A stretch of DNA of 29,461 nucleotides from IMG/VR virus record IMGVR_UViG_2565956711_000012. The stretch is one strand, 5' to 3'. Positions 11,369 to 22,902 of the stretch are shown here, piece after piece; positions within the stretch are counted from its first letter, which is position 1, and each line of letters opens with the position of its first letter. The notes beneath the pieces were generated by a model. The model did not search any database, was not told the origin of the DNA, and saw nothing but the letters and a program-made list of their open reading frames with translations. The position numbers and the translations under genes were made by a program. Source of the DNA: a virus (taxonomy: Duplodnaviria; Heunggongvirae; Uroviricota; Caudoviricetes).

Positions 11369-11961
11369 TATTTGCTCTCCACGTCGGCTTCAGTCCCGGC
11401 AACGGTCGCCAGTTCGGTCACAATCAGCATCTTTTCAGCCTTCAGACGCAGGGCTGTGTCGGTACTGATCACGCACCCCTGTAGCGGATTACCACCGGCA
11501 TCTTCCAGAATCTGTTCATCCGGGTTATCGCTGACAAACACATGCACCGTATCGTGCGGCCAGAATCGGCCAGCCCGGCGAAAACCGTTTTCCGGAATGG
11601 CGCGGACCTCCAGCACCACGACATTTTCAGCAATGCGAACAGCCTCTGAATGGTCATGTGCCAGCGTCTCCTGCCAGAGATGTTTTCTCAGGTCATCACC
11701 CGTGTTCTCACCCGGTATGGTGACAAGACTGACTGTGGCCGGGATAACCGTTATTCCATTGTCATCGGGTACAGGTTCCGGGTCAGATGCGACATCTGAA
11801 GCTGCAACCGCCGGTTGTGATGCCTGACTGTCATCAGTAATAACTGGTGCCACCGGTGCCGGTTTCGCCGGGACAGGCGTATCCTTCGTTGCTTTGTCGT
11901 CTTTCTTTTCCGAAGTGGTTCCGGTCTTACCAGCGGCTGACTTATTAACTTTTCCACTCAC
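11368..11961 (-). CDS. head protein of unknown function (Mu gp35 position); GTG start
   Basis: 197-aa ORF starting with GTG preceded by GAGG 8 nt upstream; Lys/Pro/Ala-rich low-complexity N-terminus; located directly after the major capsid gene. Confidence 0.45.
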   Translation of the reverse strand: MSGKVNKSAAGKTGTTSEKKDDKATKDTPVPAKPAPVAPVITDDSQASQPAVAASDVASDPEPVPDDNGITVIPATVSLVTIPGENTGDDLRKHLWQETLAHDHSEAVRIAENVVVLEVRAIPENGFRRAGRFWPHDTVHVFVSDNPDEQILEDAGGNPLQGCVISTDTALRLKAEKMLIVTELATVAGTEADVESK

Positions 11962-13958: not shown

Positions 13959-13974
13959 GGATTAACCGGCTTCA
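13959..13974 (-). promoter_or_regulatory. 16-mer TGAAGCCGGTTAATCC (copy 2, about 60 nt upstream of the I ATG)
   Basis: Exact repeat of the 16-mer upstream of the endolysin gene; here it lacks the hairpin partner and U-tract, so the shared element is not simply a terminator. Confidence 0.45.
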
Positions 13975-14107: not shown

Positions 14108-14896
14108 TTATGGCGAATGACTGTCAAACGCTTCCTGTTTTCTGCGTAGCTGTTCATCCAGCTCGCGACTGCGGGAGATTCCGGGGTTGTACGCCCAGCC
14201 GGGATCAATCCCCTCCGGAATGGTCTCTTCTTCGCCAGTGCGTTTGTTAACCCACCTGACCGTGCGGACTTCAGGGGCTTCCGTGTTGATAGTGCCGTTG
14301 GCCTTCATCTGCTCATACTCATACCGGCTGATTTGCCGCGTACCGCATTTGCAGCCCCAGCCGTTCGGCCCCATGTGTGTTCGCCAGAACGGATGATCCA
14401 CCGGCAGGCAGACATCCTTCCAGCGAAGATGCTCTGCACGGTGCTCACGTGAGGGGCCGACGGTGTAGACAAGATAAGGCATTGCCCGTTGGGTCCGTTC
14501 AATACGCTGCCATTGTCCCGCCGCGCGGGCTGTCCGCATATTGGTGTCGTAGATAACGCGCATCCGGCGGTCACTGCCGAGCTGAACAGTACGGGTTTCA
14601 CCGGTCAGTGGGTCATCCATCAGTTGCTGTCCCCACCATCCACGTTTGACGAGCAGAGGTTTAAGAACTTCGCGAAACTGCTCAAAGGTCTGGCCGTTCT
14701 CCAGCGCGTCCTCCACGAGCTGGCGAACGTCCGCCAGCAAATCAAGCTGCGTCATTTTTGCCACAGTAAAGCCGATGCTGTGTTCTTCCATCCAGACATC
14801 GCGGTAATCAAATCCCGGCTTCAGCTTTTTCGCCTTCAGCCAGGCCAGTGCTTCCTGGGGAATAATGCTGTATTTATCGCTGACCGGCTTAGCCAT
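14108..14896 (-). CDS. F: head morphogenesis protein, Mu F-like
   Basis: 262-aa ORF directly after the portal gene (8-bp overlap); size and position match Mu F. Confidence 0.8.
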   Translation of the reverse strand: MAKPVSDKYSIIPQEALAWLKAKKLKPGFDYRDVWMEEHSIGFTVAKMTQLDLLADVRQLVEDALENGQTFEQFREVLKPLLVKRGWWGQQLMDDPLTGETRTVQLGSDRRMRVIYDTNMRTARAAGQWQRIERTQRAMPYLVYTVGPSREHRAEHLRWKDVCLPVDHPFWRTHMGPNGWGCKCGTRQISRYEYEQMKANGTINTEAPEVRTVRWVNKRTGEEETIPEGIDPGWAYNPGISRSRELDEQLRRKQEAFDSHSP

Positions 14897-19552: not shown

Positions 19553-19858
19553 TTAATTTTTTTCCTTCAGTTCGTTTTCCAGCAACAGATCGCTGATACG
19601 TGTGGCCTGCCGGAGCATTCCGGAGAACTCCCGTATTTCGCCGCGCAGGTTGCTCATATCCAGTTGCAACTGGTGGAGTTCCTGCCGTGACGGCATCCCG
19701 TCGATGGCCTTTTCAAGTGCACTCATCCGGCTGTTAACTTTCTCCATCTCTTCCCGGCGGGCATAGGTTTTCACCAGCAGCAGGTGGATAATATTGATAC
19801 CGGACATCAGTCCGGCCCAGATGACAGCCCAGTTACTTCTTACGGTTTCCCATTCCAT
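19553..19858 (-). CDS. membrane-anchored coiled-coil protein (Mu gp25-like / DUF2730-like; lysis-associated)
   Basis: 101-aa ORF; N-terminal hydrophobic segment WAVIWAGLMSGINIIHLLLV followed by a heptad-rich coiled coil. Confidence 0.5.
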   Translation of the reverse strand: MEWETVRSNWAVIWAGLMSGINIIHLLLVKTYARREEMEKVNSRMSALEKAIDGMPSRQELHQLQLDMSNLRGEIREFSGMLRQATRISDLLLENELKEKN

Positions 19859-20065
19859 TTATGCCGTCTCCCTGAGTGTCTGGCAGTCAATGCAGGTCAC
19901 GGCATCCGGCATGGCCGCCAGTCGTTTAGGGTCAATTTCGTCACCACAGTCGTTGCAGTGACCTGGAGTATCAGGAGATTCTTTAACCCTGTTTAACAGG
20001 GCATTTAATGCCCGTTCACGGTCTGCCATCTCAAGGCCGCTGGCCTTGTCCAGTTCATCCGTCAT
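19859..20065 (-). CDS. TraR/DksA-family C4 zinc-finger protein
   Basis: 68-aa ORF with C-x2-C ... C-x2-C (CNDCGDEIDPKRLAAMPDAVTCIDCQ), the TraR/DksA signature. Confidence 0.75.
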   Translation of the reverse strand: MTDELDKASGLEMADRERALNALLNRVKESPDTPGHCNDCGDEIDPKRLAAMPDAVTCIDCQTLRETA

Positions 20066-20670
20066 TTACCCGCCGCCATCGTTTTGTGTTTGCTGGATTT
20101 GCTGTACCGGGCGAACCCGTCAAGGGTGCGAAAACCGAGATACCCGAGCGCCGGTGTCGCCAGCATGAGTGCGATATCCCAGTCCGGTGATGGCATGGAG
20201 AAGGCATGACCAAAAGCACCGGATACCGCGCCAGCCTGCTGACCCACTGACATCAGCATCACATACGCAATGCTGCTGTAGAGCGACAGCCTCGCCATCA
20301 GCGGCCTGGTCTGACGGACATATTCATCCGTGGCGTTGTCCCCGTTACGGATGGTTTCCTGCTGTTCATGGTGGGCAGCCTGACGGTCAGCCAGTACGGC
20401 TTTGTCCCGCTCAAGCTGGAATTGCTCAATCTGGACTTTTAGGGACTGGAGCTGGACGAACTGTTCTGGCGGCAGCGCCGCCAGTTTCTGCTCAAGCACC
20501 CGCTGCTGGTCCTGCGGGTTGATGACGCTGTTGACGTTCTCAACGATCCCCGCCACAGAATCTGCCGTTCTGGCGGTGTCGCCACCGAACCAGCCTCCCA
20601 CGGTACGCAGTAATGACGGTCCGGCCTTCATCAGAACGGAGGCAATGGTGGTGAGGGTTACTGGATCCAT
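20062..20670 (-). CDS. putative holin-like membrane protein
   Basis: 202-aa ORF; soluble N-terminal region and C-terminal hydrophobic segments (YSSIAYVMLMSV; IALMLATPALGYLGF); lies in the lysis block. Confidence 0.4.
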   Translation of the reverse strand: MDPVTLTTIASVLMKAGPSLLRTVGGWFGGDTARTADSVAGIVENVNSVINPQDQQRVLEQKLAALPPEQFVQLQSLKVQIEQFQLERDKAVLADRQAAHHEQQETIRNGDNATDEYVRQTRPLMARLSLYSSIAYVMLMSVGQQAGAVSGAFGHAFSMPSPDWDIALMLATPALGYLGFRTLDGFARYSKSSKHKTMAAGK

Positions 20671-21065
20671 ACAAGCAGCCCCTTACGTGCAACCCACTGA
20701 CAGAACAGAAATCCTGTGGCTGCGCCGAGTGGTTCAAGGACAAGCAGGTACAGCGGGCTGGCATAAAGTGGACTCAGGCAGATAAGAACGAACCCAACTC
20801 CCCAGACAACCCACGACCAGAAACATGCATGCCGGCTGATATGCATTTCAGGTTTAAGAAGCCTGTAAGGCAGATTGCCAAGAAAGATGCTGAACCCGAC
20901 CAGGACCACACCGGACAACGCCAGCCACCAGACCATAAATGCCTGGCGGCCTGAGAAACTACAGATGAACAGCGACAGGCCGACGAGAATGACAATGCTC
21001 CATCCGGAGCGCAAAACCTGTACCAGTGCCAGCTTTAACCAGTCACAGCTAAACGATTTAAACAT
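20658..21065 (-). CDS. polytopic inner-membrane protein (lysis block; holin/antiholin candidate)
   Basis: Start chosen at internal ATG (MFKSFSCDWLK...) which overlaps the upstream stop as ATGTTTAA; about four hydrophobic helices; the longer ORF-track version (to 21236) overlaps the upstream gene out of frame. Confidence 0.45.
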   Translation of the reverse strand: MFKSFSCDWLKLALVQVLRSGWSIVILVGLSLFICSFSGRQAFMVWWLALSGVVLVGFSIFLGNLPYRLLKPEMHISRHACFWSWVVWGVGFVLICLSPLYASPLYLLVLEPLGAATGFLFCQWVARKGLLVWIQ

Positions 21066-21277: not shown

Positions 21278-21868
21278 TCAGCTCCGGGCTACCGAATAGC
21301 GGACACCGGAAATCTCACGACAGGCGTCAGCGAGGTTGTCCAGTCGGTTAAACCAGCCGTTGAGGAACTTGCCCTGTGAAGGATTTGATTTGATGATGTC
21401 GGCGTAATAGCGGGAACGACGCAGAAATAAACGGTTCAGCAGCCAGTCAGGGTCAGCACCTTCAACGGCTGCGCGGGTGTTTTTACCGGCGATACCATCA
21501 ACACTTTTGCCGGTGAAACCCGCAGCTTCCTGAAGCAACTGGACAGCCTTTTTGACGCCATGCTGGACGGCAGAGTCAAAGGCAAACAGGGCTATATCAT
21601 CCGGCCAAAACTGGCAATACGCGGGATACCAGTAGTCACGGAAGTAAATCTGTCCGGCCTGTTCAACCGTTAAATCACGAATACGCGTATCAGGCTTGCC
21701 ATCGCCATTAACGTCGGTCATGCCATCGGCAACACCGTCGCGTTTATCTGATATACCGAAGTTGGTTTCACCGCCACGGTCAGTGGGGTCATTGACATAT
21801 CCGCGTTCTGCGCTGAGCACGAAAGCAAGAGCATTGCGAAATGCGGGAGAATCGGGGGTGTTGTTCAT
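21278..21868 (-). CDS. endolysin, GH108-type N-acetylmuramidase with C-terminal peptidoglycan-binding region
   Basis: 196-aa ORF; N-terminal ERGYVNDPTDRGGETNFGIS matches the GH108 catalytic motif as I recall it; no signal peptide or SAR segment; AGGTG about 7 nt upstream of ATG. Confidence 0.75.
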   Translation of the reverse strand: MNNTPDSPAFRNALAFVLSAERGYVNDPTDRGGETNFGISDKRDGVADGMTDVNGDGKPDTRIRDLTVEQAGQIYFRDYWYPAYCQFWPDDIALFAFDSAVQHGVKKAVQLLQEAAGFTGKSVDGIAGKNTRAAVEGADPDWLLNRLFLRRSRYYADIIKSNPSQGKFLNGWFNRLDNLADACREISGVRYSVARS

Positions 21869-21919: not shown

Positions 21920-21946
21920 CGAAAAAAAAGCCGGATTAACCGGCTT
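21920..21946 (-). terminator. intrinsic terminator ending the early (mor-moron) transcript
   Basis: Minus-strand RNA: AGCCGG-UUAAU-CCGGCU stem-loop followed by 8-9 U; located 30-50 nt after the moron stop. Confidence 0.65.
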
Positions 21947-21948
21947 CA
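21933..21948 (-). promoter_or_regulatory. 16-mer TGAAGCCGGTTAATCC (copy 1, about 64 nt upstream of the endolysin ATG)
   Basis: Identical 16-mer occurs again at 13959-13974, about 60 nt upstream of the I ATG; candidate late-activator site. Confidence 0.45.
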
Positions 21949-21978: not shown

Positions 21979-22488
21979 CTATGCTTTTCGTAAATCGCAG
22001 GAGTAAGTAACTGACTCCATAACTTTTCGAATAGTGGCTCGTAATTCCATTCCAGATGTAAAACCTGATGCTGAATAAGAGTCGTCTTCTCTTCTATTTG
22101 CCGTCGCTTTTGTAAAAATCTCAGCAACTTGATTGATTGAGTTTTCTGAGTCTTTCTTTCCCGTCACCCCCTCTACGAGTTTTACACATTGATTAACAGC
22201 AGCCAGTGATTCACCGTCAATATCTTTACCACTTGAAAACACCATTGCTGTAACTGCATCTGTACCTAATGCCCAAACGGTACTTACAGTGGAATCTTCA
22301 GTTGTTGCTGTATAAACCTGAACACCATCAACTATGGCTCCTTTTTTCCATTCTGTTTTTTTCAGGACACCCATTTTATCAAATTGAGAAATAAGCTTTT
22401 CATTACCTGTTAGTTCATCTTTATCGAAAAAATAGTGATACCCCCCAACTAAAATAACGGCCAGTATTAATGCATCAGTAAATTTCAT
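21979..22488 (-). CDS. moron: membrane-anchored or secreted protein of unknown function
   Basis: 169-aa ORF; N-terminal hydrophobic stretch (FTDALILAVILVGGYHYFF); clearly AT-rich compared with flanking DNA; GGAG about 7 nt upstream of ATG, inside the end of mor; followed by an intrinsic terminator. Confidence 0.6.
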   Translation of the reverse strand: MKFTDALILAVILVGGYHYFFDKDELTGNEKLISQFDKMGVLKKTEWKKGAIVDGVQVYTATTEDSTVSTVWALGTDAVTAMVFSSGKDIDGESLAAVNQCVKLVEGVTGKKDSENSINQVAEIFTKATANRREDDSYSASGFTSGMELRATIRKVMESVTYSCDLRKA

Positions 22489-22491
22489 ATG

Positions 22492-22902
22492 TTACTCCCT
22501 GCCAAATAAATCCAGTTGATGCTTGCGGTGCTCTAGTTTACGCATGCGTCTGATGGCTTTATACACCGTTTTATAGGTAACACGGTAACGCTCAACCAAC
22601 TCTGTGATGTTTCTGCCATTGAAATCACGCCAGATTTTCATATCACGAATCAATGACTCAAGAGTCTGGCCGCGTGGGAAATAAATCTGCATACCGCCAA
22701 TCTGACAGCTAATCGCGTAAACCAGCTCCAGAGAGATACGTGGGTCAACGCCATGCTTTGTCAGTTCGCCACGCAGCAGCGTATTCAGTTCTGTCAGCAG
22801 TGCAGGGAAACGCACTGTTTCCGCCGAACTGTCATCGTCCAGGTGCTCCAGAATGCTGTCATCCTGGATATCACCAAACAGATCATTCTGCTTTTCGCTC
22901 AT
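22492..22902 (-). CDS. mor: middle-operon regulator Mor (Mor/C family transcription activator)
   Basis: 136-aa ORF; DLFGD near the N-terminus, FPALLTELNTLLRGEL, IRDMKIWRDFNGRN and C-terminal HTH YKTVYKAIRRMRK match Mor as I recall it; sits right after the gemA-like gene as in Mu. Confidence 0.8.
   Translation of the reverse strand: MSEKQNDLFGDIQDDSILEHLDDDSSAETVRFPALLTELNTLLRGELTKHGVDPRISLELVYAISCQIGGMQIYFPRGQTLESLIRDMKIWRDFNGRNITELVERYRVTYKTVYKAIRRMRKLEHRKHQLDLFGRE

Follow-up and report, generated by a model that had tools for sequence, protein, structure and literature searches.

A TraR-family zinc-finger protein encoded in the lysis/head operon of a Mu-like prophage, a probable regulator of host RNA polymerase

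The stretch of DNA analyzed here, 29,461 nucleotides in length (IMG/VR record IMGVR_UViG_2565956711_000012, referred to below as the window), comes from a transposable, Mu-like prophage that is carried by Citrobacter and related enterics. An open reading frame (ORF) located among its lysis and head genes encodes a small zinc-finger protein, which raises the question of what a protein of the TraR/DksA type does in such an operon. Most probably, it is a TraR-family regulator of RNA polymerase (RNAP) that would inhibit host rRNA and ribosomal-protein promoters without the aid of ppGpp.

The original prediction placed a 68-aa ORF at positions 19859 to 20065, and an ATG-to-TAA frame of 68 codons occupies exactly these positions; the strand, which had been left unstated, is minus (Table 1). 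The encoded protein is MTDELDKASGLEMADRERALNALLNRVKESPDTPGHCNDCGDEIDPKRLAAMPDAVTCIDCQTLRETA. The length of this ORF alone is not significant, since the ORF list has 63 entries of 30 aa or more that overlap a 5-kb stretch here. Among relatives, however, the gene shows a dN/dS of 0.07 to 0.17 and is therefore under purifying selection, and the identical 68-aa protein is found on 679 contigs and listed in 1435 index blocks. The gene has been confirmed as genuine, the family evidence exceeding chance by a wide margin. A chance frame or a decaying, functionless relic might be suspected because some cluster representatives have a frameshift or have lost a zinc ligand (C37Y, C40F), and prophage accessory genes are often dispensable. 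Given the selection and occurrence figures, family E values from 1e-13 to 1e-19, and the intact state of every key motif in the 68-aa protein, the probability of this explanation is close to negligible. The 90% cluster that includes the protein also lists DUF2730 proteins and is represented by a DUF2730 fragment; this mix was read as a database quirk, and a TraR-like/DUF2730 fusion was rejected.

Table 1. Positions of the TraR-like gene, its parts, and related features in the window
Feature	Position	Strand	Basis or remark
TraR-family gene, 68 aa	19859..20065	minus	ATG 20065-20063, TAA 19861-19859; ORF list, Pfam, PHROG, dN/dS
DxxDxA tip motif, codons 3-8 (D-E-L-D-K-A)	20042..20059	minus	gapless alignment to TraR MSDEADEA
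N-terminal helix, codons 2-27, including L23 and V27	19985..20062	minus	AlphaFold helices 2-24 and 3-27
C4 zinc-finger globular region, codons 37-61 (C37, C40, C58, C61), including R48	19883..19957	minus	
Short C-terminal helix, codons 59-67, with E66	19865..19891	minus	AlphaFold helix 59-67
Upstream 202-aa gene (PHROG 1544, function unknown)	20062..20670	minus	stop codon shares ATGA with the start of the TraR-like gene
Downstream DUF2730 gene (counterpart of Mu gp25, “releasin”)	19553..19858	minus	Pfam DUF2730, 2.1e-30
Endolysin (GH108 + PG_binding_3), first gene of the operon	21278..21868	minus	Pfam, PHROG
Pm-type dyad element AATGAAGCCGGTTAATCCGGC followed by T8	21927..21948	minus	64 nt upstream of the endolysin ATG
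Second exact copy of TGAAGCCGGTTAATCC	13959..13974	minus	60 nt upstream of the protease/scaffold gene
Mor/C-family activator gene	22492..22902	minus	Pfam Mor, 3.6e-31; PHROG 532

In the Pfam scan, the protein matches the zf-dksA_traR family (PF01258) with an E value of 7.4e-13 and a score of 48.7 bits (gathering score, 24.9); in the same scan, F-plasmid TraR scores 50.7 bits and the experimentally validated Orf73 of phage lambda 34.8 bits. The match to PHROG 54 (“DksA-like zinc-finger protein”) covers residues 1 to 67 at 1.3e-19. The NCBIfam profile TIGR02419 (C4_traR_proteo; “phage/conjugal plasmid C-4 zinc finger, TraR family”) aligns over its full length, with residues 3 to 66 against profile positions 1 to 64 (E value, 9.8e-16), and its score of 58.1 bits lies 1.6 bits below the cutoff of 59.7. 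The DksA equivalog TIGR02420 is far below its cutoff (36.1 versus 115.5 bits). A sequence search of the PDB retrieves DksA (4.6e-8) and TraR (0.018). The TraR/DksA assignment made in the original prediction is thus borne out by Pfam, PHROG, the PDB matches, and the TIGR02419 alignment, and the sequence clearly marks the protein as a TraR-family member, a short single-helix relative of DksA. This identity is already known from public databases, NCBI annotating the exact 68-aa protein as a TraR/DksA family regulator, and its novelty is low. A word-indexed protein search found 14 close relatives only; the family became visible in an exhaustive search of cluster representatives, which returned 2085 of them at E values of 1e-3 or below. 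As zf-dksA_traR was the sole Pfam match and no match to the P2 Ogr/Delta family was found at E values of up to 0.01, an Ogr/Delta-type late activator was rejected. A defence or anti-defence role was rejected as well, there being no PADLOC matches for the ORF or three of its neighbours.

The four-Cys zinc-finger signature that had been recognized in the ORF is found as C37-x2-C40 and C58-x2-C61. The AlphaFold model (pLDDT, 89.9) contains helices at residues 2 to 24, 46 to 51, and 59 to 67, in a three-part layout of one N-terminal helix, a globular zinc domain, and a C-terminal helix, and its best Foldseek matches are the DksA and TraR chains of RNAP complexes (probability, 0.99 to 1.0). The acidic tip residues of TraR/DksA had been named for checking, with their absence set beforehand as evidence against the assignment. 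The tip is present (M-T-D3-E-L-D6-K-A8) and reads D3-x-x-D6-x-A8, exactly as in TraR. The wording “of the coiled coil” did not hold up, however: in the AlphaFold model, as in TraR-type proteins, there is a single N-terminal helix, and the tip is the extreme N terminus. In an alignment of 87 diverse homologs, the columns that are invariant or at least 90% conserved are D3, D6, A8, R16, C37, C40, I44, R48, C58, C61, and E66; D6 and R48 are invariant, and D3 and A8 reach at least 90%. Among cluster representatives, the DxxDxA motif is found in 125 of 149, R48 in 144 of 146, and Glu at position 66, the equivalent of TraR E66 and DksA E143, in 132 of 146.

The F-plasmid TraR protein (73 aa; PDB entries 5W1S and 6N57) is of similar length and aligns without gaps over residues 1 to 66 (5w1s). 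Although the two proteins are only 25% identical, D3, D6, A8, C37, C40, R48, C58, C61, and E66 all match, the spacing from D6 to C37 is 31 residues in both, and positions 20, 23, and 27 are hydrophobic in each, with L23 and V27 standing in for I23 and I27 of TraR. The three-element fold is also common to both, the model superimposing on RNAP-bound TraR (6n57_M) with TM-scores of 0.66/0.63 and an rmsd of 2.9 Å over 65 columns. The differences lie in the globular part and the tail. TraR residues E46, R49, and K50, which contact β'Si3 and are required for full activation (PMC6970531), are replaced by P46, L49, and A50, and TraR's C-terminal helix, which contacts βSi1, is five residues longer. The tail past C61 is 7 aa here versus 12 in TraR, which makes the tail of the 68-aa protein one of the shorter ones in the family (median, 11; minimum, 6).

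A mode of action can be proposed on the analogy of TraR from the F plasmid and Orf73 from lambda. The N-terminal helix (residues 2 to 27, as in TraR_N [PMC6970531]) would enter the secondary channel of the host RNAP, and its DxxDxA tip is predicted to reach the active-site region, with D3, D6, and A8 beside the active site; the role of this motif has been described (PMC9239242, PMC2613031), and the D6N substitution abolishes TraR function (PMC2613031). The globular zinc-finger domain would dock on the β' rim helices via R48, and the short C-terminal helix would touch the β lobe/Si1 through E66; the protein itself is expected to bind no DNA. Promoters that form short-lived open complexes, such as those of rRNA and ribosomal-protein genes, would be inhibited. 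Since the three β'Si3-contacting residues of TraR are not conserved, amino-acid promoters may be activated only weakly; in TraR, the R49A substitution mildly impairs inhibition and halves activation (PMC6970531).

Phage-encoded relatives lend weight to the analogy. The statement in the original prediction that phage TraR homologues can reprogramme host transcription is documented: the five that were tested, Orf73 of lambda, Orf82 of P2, Orf8 of VHML, Orf61 of VP882, and Gp34 of X. bovienii, all bind RNAP and inhibit rRNA and ribosomal-protein promoters (PMC9239242). They are also small TraR-family proteins with the DxxDxA motif, the C4 finger, and R48; lambda Orf73, which has the lower Pfam score of the two, is 35% identical to the 68-aa protein. 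These validated homologs are 32 to 49% identical (PMC9239242), versus the 25% identity to TraR seen here, and they keep the R49 equivalent, whereas the 68-aa protein has L49, like DksA. Phage searches queried with TraR and with the 68-aa protein returned largely different sets of records; judging by this small overlap, the protein belongs to a sub-clade other than that of TraR and the validated phage homologs. In the sub-clade, 124 of 146 representatives have a hydrophobic residue at position 49, comparable to L126 of DksA.

The likeness to DksA deserves a closer look, as the E. coli protein (151 aa; PDB entries 1TJL, 5VSW, and 7KHI) is the best sequence match among solved structures. It shares the DxxDxA tip and the C4 finger, its R125-L126, E143, and R91 correspond to R48-L49, E66, and R16, and its residues 69 to 151 are 40% identical to the 68-aa protein. 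The closeness to the C-terminal half of DksA, with an identity higher than that to TraR (40% versus 25%), a better PDB search E value (4.6e-8 versus 0.018), and the similarity of K47-R48-L49 to DksA R124-R125-L126, suggests a DksA-type cofactor that requires ppGpp. Such a cofactor would, however, have to work without the first 68 residues of DksA, which comprise the N-terminal region and the first coiled-coil helix, with the tip at residue 3 of a 68-aa chain, and with a tip-to-finger helix that is 9 residues longer in DksA (spacing of 40 versus 31). Of the five basic residues that contact ppGpp at site 2 (R91, K94, K98, R129, and K139 [bioRxiv 10.1101/188680]), R91 alone has an equivalent, R16; the HMMER alignment to DksA places A19, L23, M52, and Q62 at the other four positions. 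The pocket carries hydrophobic residues, as it does in TraR, where I23 and I27 occupy ppGpp site 2 (bioRxiv 10.1101/188680), and the score against the DksA equivalog is low. Dependence on ppGpp was rejected on these residues, and a DksA-type cofactor is highly improbable. Instead, a TraR-like mode is predicted because the first helix of DksA and its basic ppGpp-contacting residues are missing, and action without ppGpp is predicted because L23 and V27 fill the TraR pocket positions and counterparts of DksA K94, K98, R129, and K139 are absent.

The surroundings of the gene indicate when such a regulator would be made. Its neighbours include genes for the endolysin, membrane proteins, the Gp27 small terminase, the large terminase, the portal protein, and Mu F. 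The ATG of the DUF2730 gene abuts the TraR-like stop codon (TAAATG), and because the two junctions of the TraR-like gene overlap (ATGA) or abut, the gene is regarded as translationally coupled to both neighbours. The original placement of the gene inside a lysis/packaging operon is supported by these junctions and by the lysis, terminase, portal, and head genes around it. By hydropathy, the DUF2730 protein has one N-terminal membrane segment (for the role of Mu gp25, see PMC9239132), and the endolysin has no membrane-like N-terminal segment. No convincing minus-strand terminator was found from position 21868 to position 14108, and a search of the window for structured RNAs gave no Rfam match at or above the gathering score. 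TraR is similarly encoded inside a long mobile-element operon and not beside its targets; that operon is devoted to conjugative transfer, whereas the gene studied here is phage-borne and lies in a lysis/head operon.

A Pm-type dyad element, one mismatch from Mu Pm and with 0 to 2 mismatches in relatives, occurs twice in the window at equivalent distances to start codons (for the Mor dyad, see PMC4390567; a primer named “Mu Pm nt9163 F” is listed in PMC9239132). The copy upstream of the endolysin gene is predicted to be the Mor-dependent promoter element that heads the operon of the TraR-like gene, and the copy upstream of the protease/scaffold gene is predicted to start the next transcription unit and so to bound the operon. 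A plain terminator at 21947 to 21927 (hairpin plus T-run) was rejected, as it holds a 16-mer that resembles Mu Pm and recurs upstream of the gene for the protease/scaffold; termination of an early transcript may be an added role of this promoter/activator element. Only one Mor/C-family gene is found in the window, as is also the case for the gene calls in identical prophages, and its product is predicted to activate the operon. The transcription cascade appears two-tiered, since an element resembling the Mor-dependent middle promoter of Mu heads the operon and a single Mor/C-family gene is found. The designation “late” given to the operon originally fits its gene content; the element at its head is nearly identical to the middle promoter Pm of Mu.

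The position of the gene directly under a Pm-type promoter, which has no -35 element and would require an activator (PMC4390567), allows for a protein that binds RNAP but acts mainly on the phage's own Mor-dependent promoters, in positive feedback on, or timing of, the lysis and head genes. TraR strongly raises transcription from F-element promoters in vitro (PMC9239242), and the authors of the KS10 study speculated about coordination of head-gene modules (PMC2628397). The TraR activation residues E46, R49, and K50, which contact β'Si3, are absent from the 68-aa protein, though, and no sequence feature separates such own-promoter control from host-directed inhibition; own-promoter control is considered unlikely. 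The TraR-like gene would be transcribed from the Pm-type, Mor-dependent promoter together with genes for the endolysin, membrane/lysis proteins, terminase, portal, and head. With co-transcription and coupling to both neighbours, the level of the protein should rise with those of the virion and lysis proteins, and inhibition of host promoters would free RNAP and resources for phage genes towards the end of lytic growth, in keeping with the putative late-stage host takeover of the original prediction.

Mu-like phages of alpha-, beta-, and gammaproteobacteria likewise carry a TraR-like gene in this slot, between the endolysin or membrane-protein genes and the small terminase gene. Examples are gp7 of Burkholderia phage KS10 and HI1497 of Haemophilus FluMu, the positions of which were noted in 2008 (PMC2628397) and 2013 (PMC3877243), respectively, gp28 of Vibrio martha 12B12, p23 of Shewanella MuM16-2, and gp24 of Sinorhizobium StopSmel; the slot in Mu itself is taken by gp24. 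In Mu, Vibrio martha, and Shewanella MuM16-2, the slot gene is directly upstream of a DUF2730/gp25-type gene. The Vibrio and Shewanella proteins are 47% and 43% identical to the 68-aa protein, respectively; the latter has a DxxExA tip, and a sister enterobacterial lineage combines DxxDxI with a 14-aa tail. Synteny of the 202-aa gene extends over 34 related viral loci as well as the Vibrio and Shewanella Mu-like phages. A megablast search against annotated phages gave a single match, to an unannotated Klebsiella phage, at 73% identity; the annotated context was therefore taken from searches at the protein level.

Mu gp24 differs from the other slot proteins. It shares only the zinc-finger half with the 68-aa protein (hhalign probability, 83%), has no Pfam TraR/DksA match even at E values of up to 1, carries E3 and N6 in place of D3 and D6 and Val at the R48 position, and ends in a 4-aa tail, the C-terminal helix having been lost. 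Mu gp24 was accordingly rejected as a straightforward ortholog. Its loss of D6, R48, and the C-terminal helix means that the RNAP function is dispensable in at least one lineage or that the slot serves another purpose. The latter could be the case if the zinc finger had been co-opted for lysis or packaging through the coupled 202-aa protein or the DUF2730 “releasin” homolog, RNAP binding being vestigial. Mu gp24 retains the finger and the slot without the RNAP-contact motifs, the coupling to both neighbours is tight and the gene order is kept from alpha- to gammaproteobacterial Mu-like phages, TraR-like genes adjoin lysis genes in unrelated P2-like phages too, and the TraR protein of VP882 acts in complex with a protein encoded just upstream (bioRxiv 10.64898/2026.07.27.740977). 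Yet, apart from the Cys residues, conservation in the family is highest at D3, D6, A8, R48, and E66, a pattern to be expected only if RNAP contacts matter, and the lysis roles in Mu have been given to gp22, gp23, gp23.1, and gp25, the term “gp24” being absent from that text (PMC9239132). The upstream partner of VP882, QisA (199 aa), is encoded just like the 202-aa protein, with a 4-bp overlap with the TraR gene; the two proteins are without similarity, however, BLASTP yielding no alignment at E values of up to 100, and a QisA-like partner was rejected for lack of homology support. Co-option of this kind is very unlikely.

A combination of both functions can also be envisaged. The sub-clade from Mu-like phages might represent a late-expressed, “inhibition-only” TraR that is partnered with the DUF2730/gp25-type protein or the 202-aa protein, so that transcription shut-off is tied to lysis timing. 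This proposal is rather improbable as it stands; if it were true, the conserved coupling would reflect a physical partnership, like that of QisA and TraR in VP882, linking transcription shut-off to the timing of lysis, and Mu gp24 would derive from such a protein, with the finger for partner binding retained and the ability to bind RNAP lost.

With TraR-family proteins, mobile elements reprogram the host RNAP without a stringent response. Of the family members studied, those whose genomic context is known are expressed early or when lysis or lysogeny is decided; the genes for lambda Orf73, P2 Orf82, VHML Orf8, and VP882 Orf61 lie in early or lysis-lysogeny regions (PMC9239242), in contrast to the gene described here, which would be co-transcribed with lysis and head genes. 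A well-conserved TraR-type protein is a standard part of the lysis/head operon of Mu-like phages in alpha-, beta-, and gammaproteobacteria. The finding is sound but ordinary and leaves the current understanding unchanged; what it offers is a modest but clear experimental opening, namely, the possible timing-specific role of a TraR-family protein in this setting and the significance of its DksA-like globular patch.

The 68-codon gene for the TraR-like protein (see the table) runs from ATG to TAA, as judged from the ORF list and the sequence, and encodes MTDELDKASGLEMADRERALNALLNRVKESPDTPGHCNDCGDEIDPKRLAAMPDAVTCIDCQTLRETA. The 5 kb around it are overlapped by 63 ORFs of at least 30 aa and, given that chance yields many ORFs of this size, the case for a gene comes from homology and conservation. 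The product matches the Pfam family zf-dksA_traR with an E value of 7.4e-13 (48.7 bits against a gathering score of 24.9; in the same Pfam library, the bit scores are 50.7 for F-plasmid TraR and 34.8 for lambda Orf73, which has been validated experimentally) and, over residues 1-67, PHROG 54, "DksA-like zinc-finger protein" (1.3e-19). Its match to the NCBIfam TraR family TIGR02419 has an E value of 9.8e-16, with 58.1 bits against a cutoff of 59.7. An exhaustive HMMER search with this protein returned 2085 cluster representatives at E<=1e-3, most of them 65-80 aa long, and dN/dS of the gene among relatives in its lineage is 0.07-0.17. The gene is real and kept by selection; that the ORF is non-functional is barely conceivable. 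In certain cluster representatives among its close relatives (P0001, P0002, P0010, and P0013), zinc ligands are lost (C37Y, C40F), the middle is scrambled, or the reading frame is shifted, which reflects either sporadic decay in resident prophages or sequencing errors.

In TraR, the N-terminal helix carries the DxxDxA motif at its tip and extends to the RNAP active site, R48 of the C4 globular domain contacts the beta' rim helices, E46, R49, and K50 contact beta'Si3, and the C-terminal helix contacts betaSi1 (PMC9239242; PMC6970531); the D6N substitution abolishes activity (PMC2613031). Residues 1-66 of the window protein align with TraR (5w1s) without gaps and include D3, D6, A8, the four cysteines C37, C40, C58, and C61, R48, and E66, with the D6-to-C37 spacing of TraR, 31 residues. 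When 87 diverse homologs are aligned, the columns that are invariant or at least 90% conserved (D3, D6, A8, R16, C37, C40, I44, R48, C58, C61, and E66) are essentially the zinc ligands and the known RNAP contacts. The DxxDxA motif is found in 125 and the C4 motif in 146 of 149 representatives. The acidic tip, on whose presence the original prediction of a TraR/DksA-type zinc finger had been staked, is therefore there and conserved, and the prediction stands on this point. AlphaFold models were moderate with a 13-sequence alignment (pLDDT 72.8; helices 3-27, 46-51, and 59-67) and confident with 87 sequences (pLDDT 89.9; helices 2-24, 46-51, and 59-67). In Foldseek searches of the PDB, the top matches were DksA and TraR chains of RNAP complexes (probability 0.99-1.0), and other DksA-family proteins ranked next; superposition on RNAP-bound TraR (6n57_M) gave TM-scores of 0.66/0.63 and an rmsd of 2.9 Å over 65 columns.

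By sequence, the window protein is nearer to the C-terminal half of DksA (PDB sequence match at 4.6e-8; 40% identity to DksA 69-151) than to TraR (0.018; 25% identity). It lacks the first 68 residues of DksA and, of the ppGpp site 2 residues (HMMER alignment; bioRxiv 10.1101/188680), retains only R91 (as R16) and L95 (as L20), while K94, K98, R129, and K139 are replaced by A19, L23, M52, and Q62. In TraR, I23 and I27 occupy the ppGpp pocket (bioRxiv 10.1101/188680); the corresponding residues here are L23 and V27. Given these changes, the protein is predicted to act in a TraR-like, ppGpp-independent mode; DksA-like, ppGpp-dependent action is very improbable. The Si3-contact patch differs from that of TraR, with P46, L49, and A50 in place of E46, R49, and K50, and 124 of 146 representatives have a hydrophobic residue at position 49, like L126 of DksA. 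In TraR, R49A halves activation and leaves inhibition nearly intact (PMC6970531). The tail beyond C61 has 7 residues; that of TraR has 12, and the median for the family is 11. From the patch, the R49A effect, and the short tail, inhibition can be predicted to be retained, with activation uncertain.

Positions of the features discussed
Feature	Sequence	Position	Strand
TraR-like gene, 68 codons	window	19859-20065	minus
DUF2730 gene (Mu gp25-type)	window	19553-19858	
135-aa protein, about three TM-like segments	window	20658-21065	
Endolysin, GH108 + PG_binding_3	window	21278-21868	
Pm-type element, hairpin then T8	window	21927-21948	minus
Second copy of 16-mer, upstream of protease/scaffold gene	window	13959-13974	minus
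169-aa ORF between Mor and Pm-type element	window	21979-22488	
Mor/C-family gene	window	22492-22902	
Mu gp24, 64 aa, "hypothetical", in TraR-like slot	NC_000929 (L001)	11524-11718 (2525-2719)	
TraR-like gene, Shewanella MuM16-2	L003	4001-4216	
TraR-like gene, sister enterobacterial lineage	L025-L043	5001-5228	
TraR-like gene, Mannheimia phage 1127AP1	L004	4001-4222	
TraR-like gene, Pseudomonas phage phi3	L056	3001-3210	
VP882 gp60-gp61	L053	905-1722	

Genes for an identical protein occur in many enterobacterial chromosomes, in every case within a complete Mu-type prophage. The gene order is repressor, Ner, MuA, MuB, Kil, Gam, GemA, Mor, a variable ORF, the GH108 endolysin, a gp18-like protein, the 135-aa three-TM protein, a 202-aa protein, the TraR-like protein, DUF2730, three small ORFs, Gp27, large terminase, portal, F, protease, major head, and tail genes. 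The 169-aa ORF had no match in Pfam, a PHROG scan, or PADLOC; otherwise near-identical prophages carry ORFs of 107, 169, or 172 aa there, and this is a variable accessory slot that ends the early operon.

The TraR-like start overlaps the upstream stop (ATGA), its stop directly adjoins the downstream ATG (TAAATG), and no convincing minus-strand terminator was found between 21868 and 14108. Upstream of the endolysin gene, a gap of 110 bp contains AATGAAGCCGGTTAATCCGGC, followed by T8. Its 16-mer TGAAGCCGGTTAATCC has one further exact copy in the window, on the same strand (0.17 matches expected by chance even at 3 mismatches); the copies end 64 nt (endolysin) and 60 nt (protease/scaffold) from the start codons. 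The element keeps its distance and has 0-2 mismatches in relatives with an endolysin of only about 65% identity. It differs by one base from phage Mu DNA immediately after mor, which lies within the middle promoter Pm, as indicated by a primer used for cloning, "Mu Pm nt9163 F" (PMC9239132); the dyad bound by Mor in Pm is centred at -43.5 (PMC4390567). The window yielded a single Mor/C-family gene and no C homolog, identical prophages likewise have one such gene called, and a gene homologous to gp18, a middle gene of Mu, follows the endolysin gene in the lysis operon. The TraR-like gene is therefore placed within a lysis/head operon under a Pm-type promoter, presumably Mor-dependent, and the cascade appears to have two tiers (early, then Mor-dependent), compared to three in Mu. 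The description of this operon as late was right by gene content, lysis and head genes lying alongside. The TraR-type biochemistry could instead be directed at the phage's own Pm-type promoters, which we consider unlikely.

The window endolysin has no membrane-like N-terminal segment, so that, unlike Mu gp22, it is not a SAR endolysin. Mu gp25 "releasin" is needed for SAR endolysin release (PMC9239132), and its DUF2730 homolog is retained here although the endolysin is not SAR. The 135-aa protein could be the holin. TraR-like genes also lie beside lysis genes in the late region of two P2-like phages, 1127AP1 and phi3, one following the spanin gene and the other in the tail tube/endolysin interval; the association with lysis cassettes is recurrent outside Mu-like phages too. 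Validated phage homologs with known context come, according to the authors, from early or lysis-lysogeny regions (PMC9239242). In VP882, the gene for QisA, described recently as the partner of TraR_VP882, lies immediately upstream of the TraR gene with a 4-bp overlap; the 202-aa gene matches this geometry and nearly matches the size, but its product and QisA have no sequence similarity. Co-option of the window protein as a lysis or packaging partner is quite unlikely and is without homology support, since QisA and the 202-aa protein gave no alignment.

The order 202-aa gene, TraR-like, DUF2730, gp26-like, Gp27, TerL is kept in 34 IMG/VR loci, with TraR-like identity down to about 50%. The equivalent slot holds a TraR-like gene in Vibrio phage martha 12B12, Shewanella MuM16-2, the alphaproteobacterial Mu-like Sinorhizobium phage StopSmel, Burkholderia KS10 (gp7; PMC2628397), and H. 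influenzae FluMu (HI1497; PMC3877243). The phage search sets of F TraR and the window protein are largely different. Mu gp24 shares with the window protein the finger half alone (hhalign probability 83%), keeping CxxC...CxxC, and has no Pfam TraR/DksA match. It starts MNEDQNRA (E3 and N6 for D3 and D6, a natural "D6N"), has V where R48 is expected, and ends in a 4-aa tail. Judging from these residues, gp24 is a natural loss of features required for RNAP regulation and resembles a TraR relic that has degenerated or been repurposed. Mu-like sub-lineages differ in the tip and the C-terminal helix: in the sister enterobacterial lineage, with 75 aa, the tip reads DxxDxI (A8 replaced by I) and the basic tail, RERRRKTCPGK, is longer, and the MuM16-2 tip is DxxExA, the Gre-factor form of the motif.

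The family, its mechanism class, and its occurrence in phages have been published, the position of the gene in Mu-like phages has been noted, and the exact protein is annotated in NCBI as "TraR/DksA family transcriptional regulator" or [quoted passage not shown] (679 contigs; hosts Citrobacter, E. coli, and Enterobacter). The initial observation of this gene is confirmed, and its interpretation as a TraR/DksA-type regulator is supported at the sequence level. The window protein is probably a ppGpp-independent, TraR-type secondary-channel regulator that would build up together with the late proteins and damp rRNA and r-protein promoters of the host, which could free RNAP and resources for phage production. 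[quoted passage not shown]
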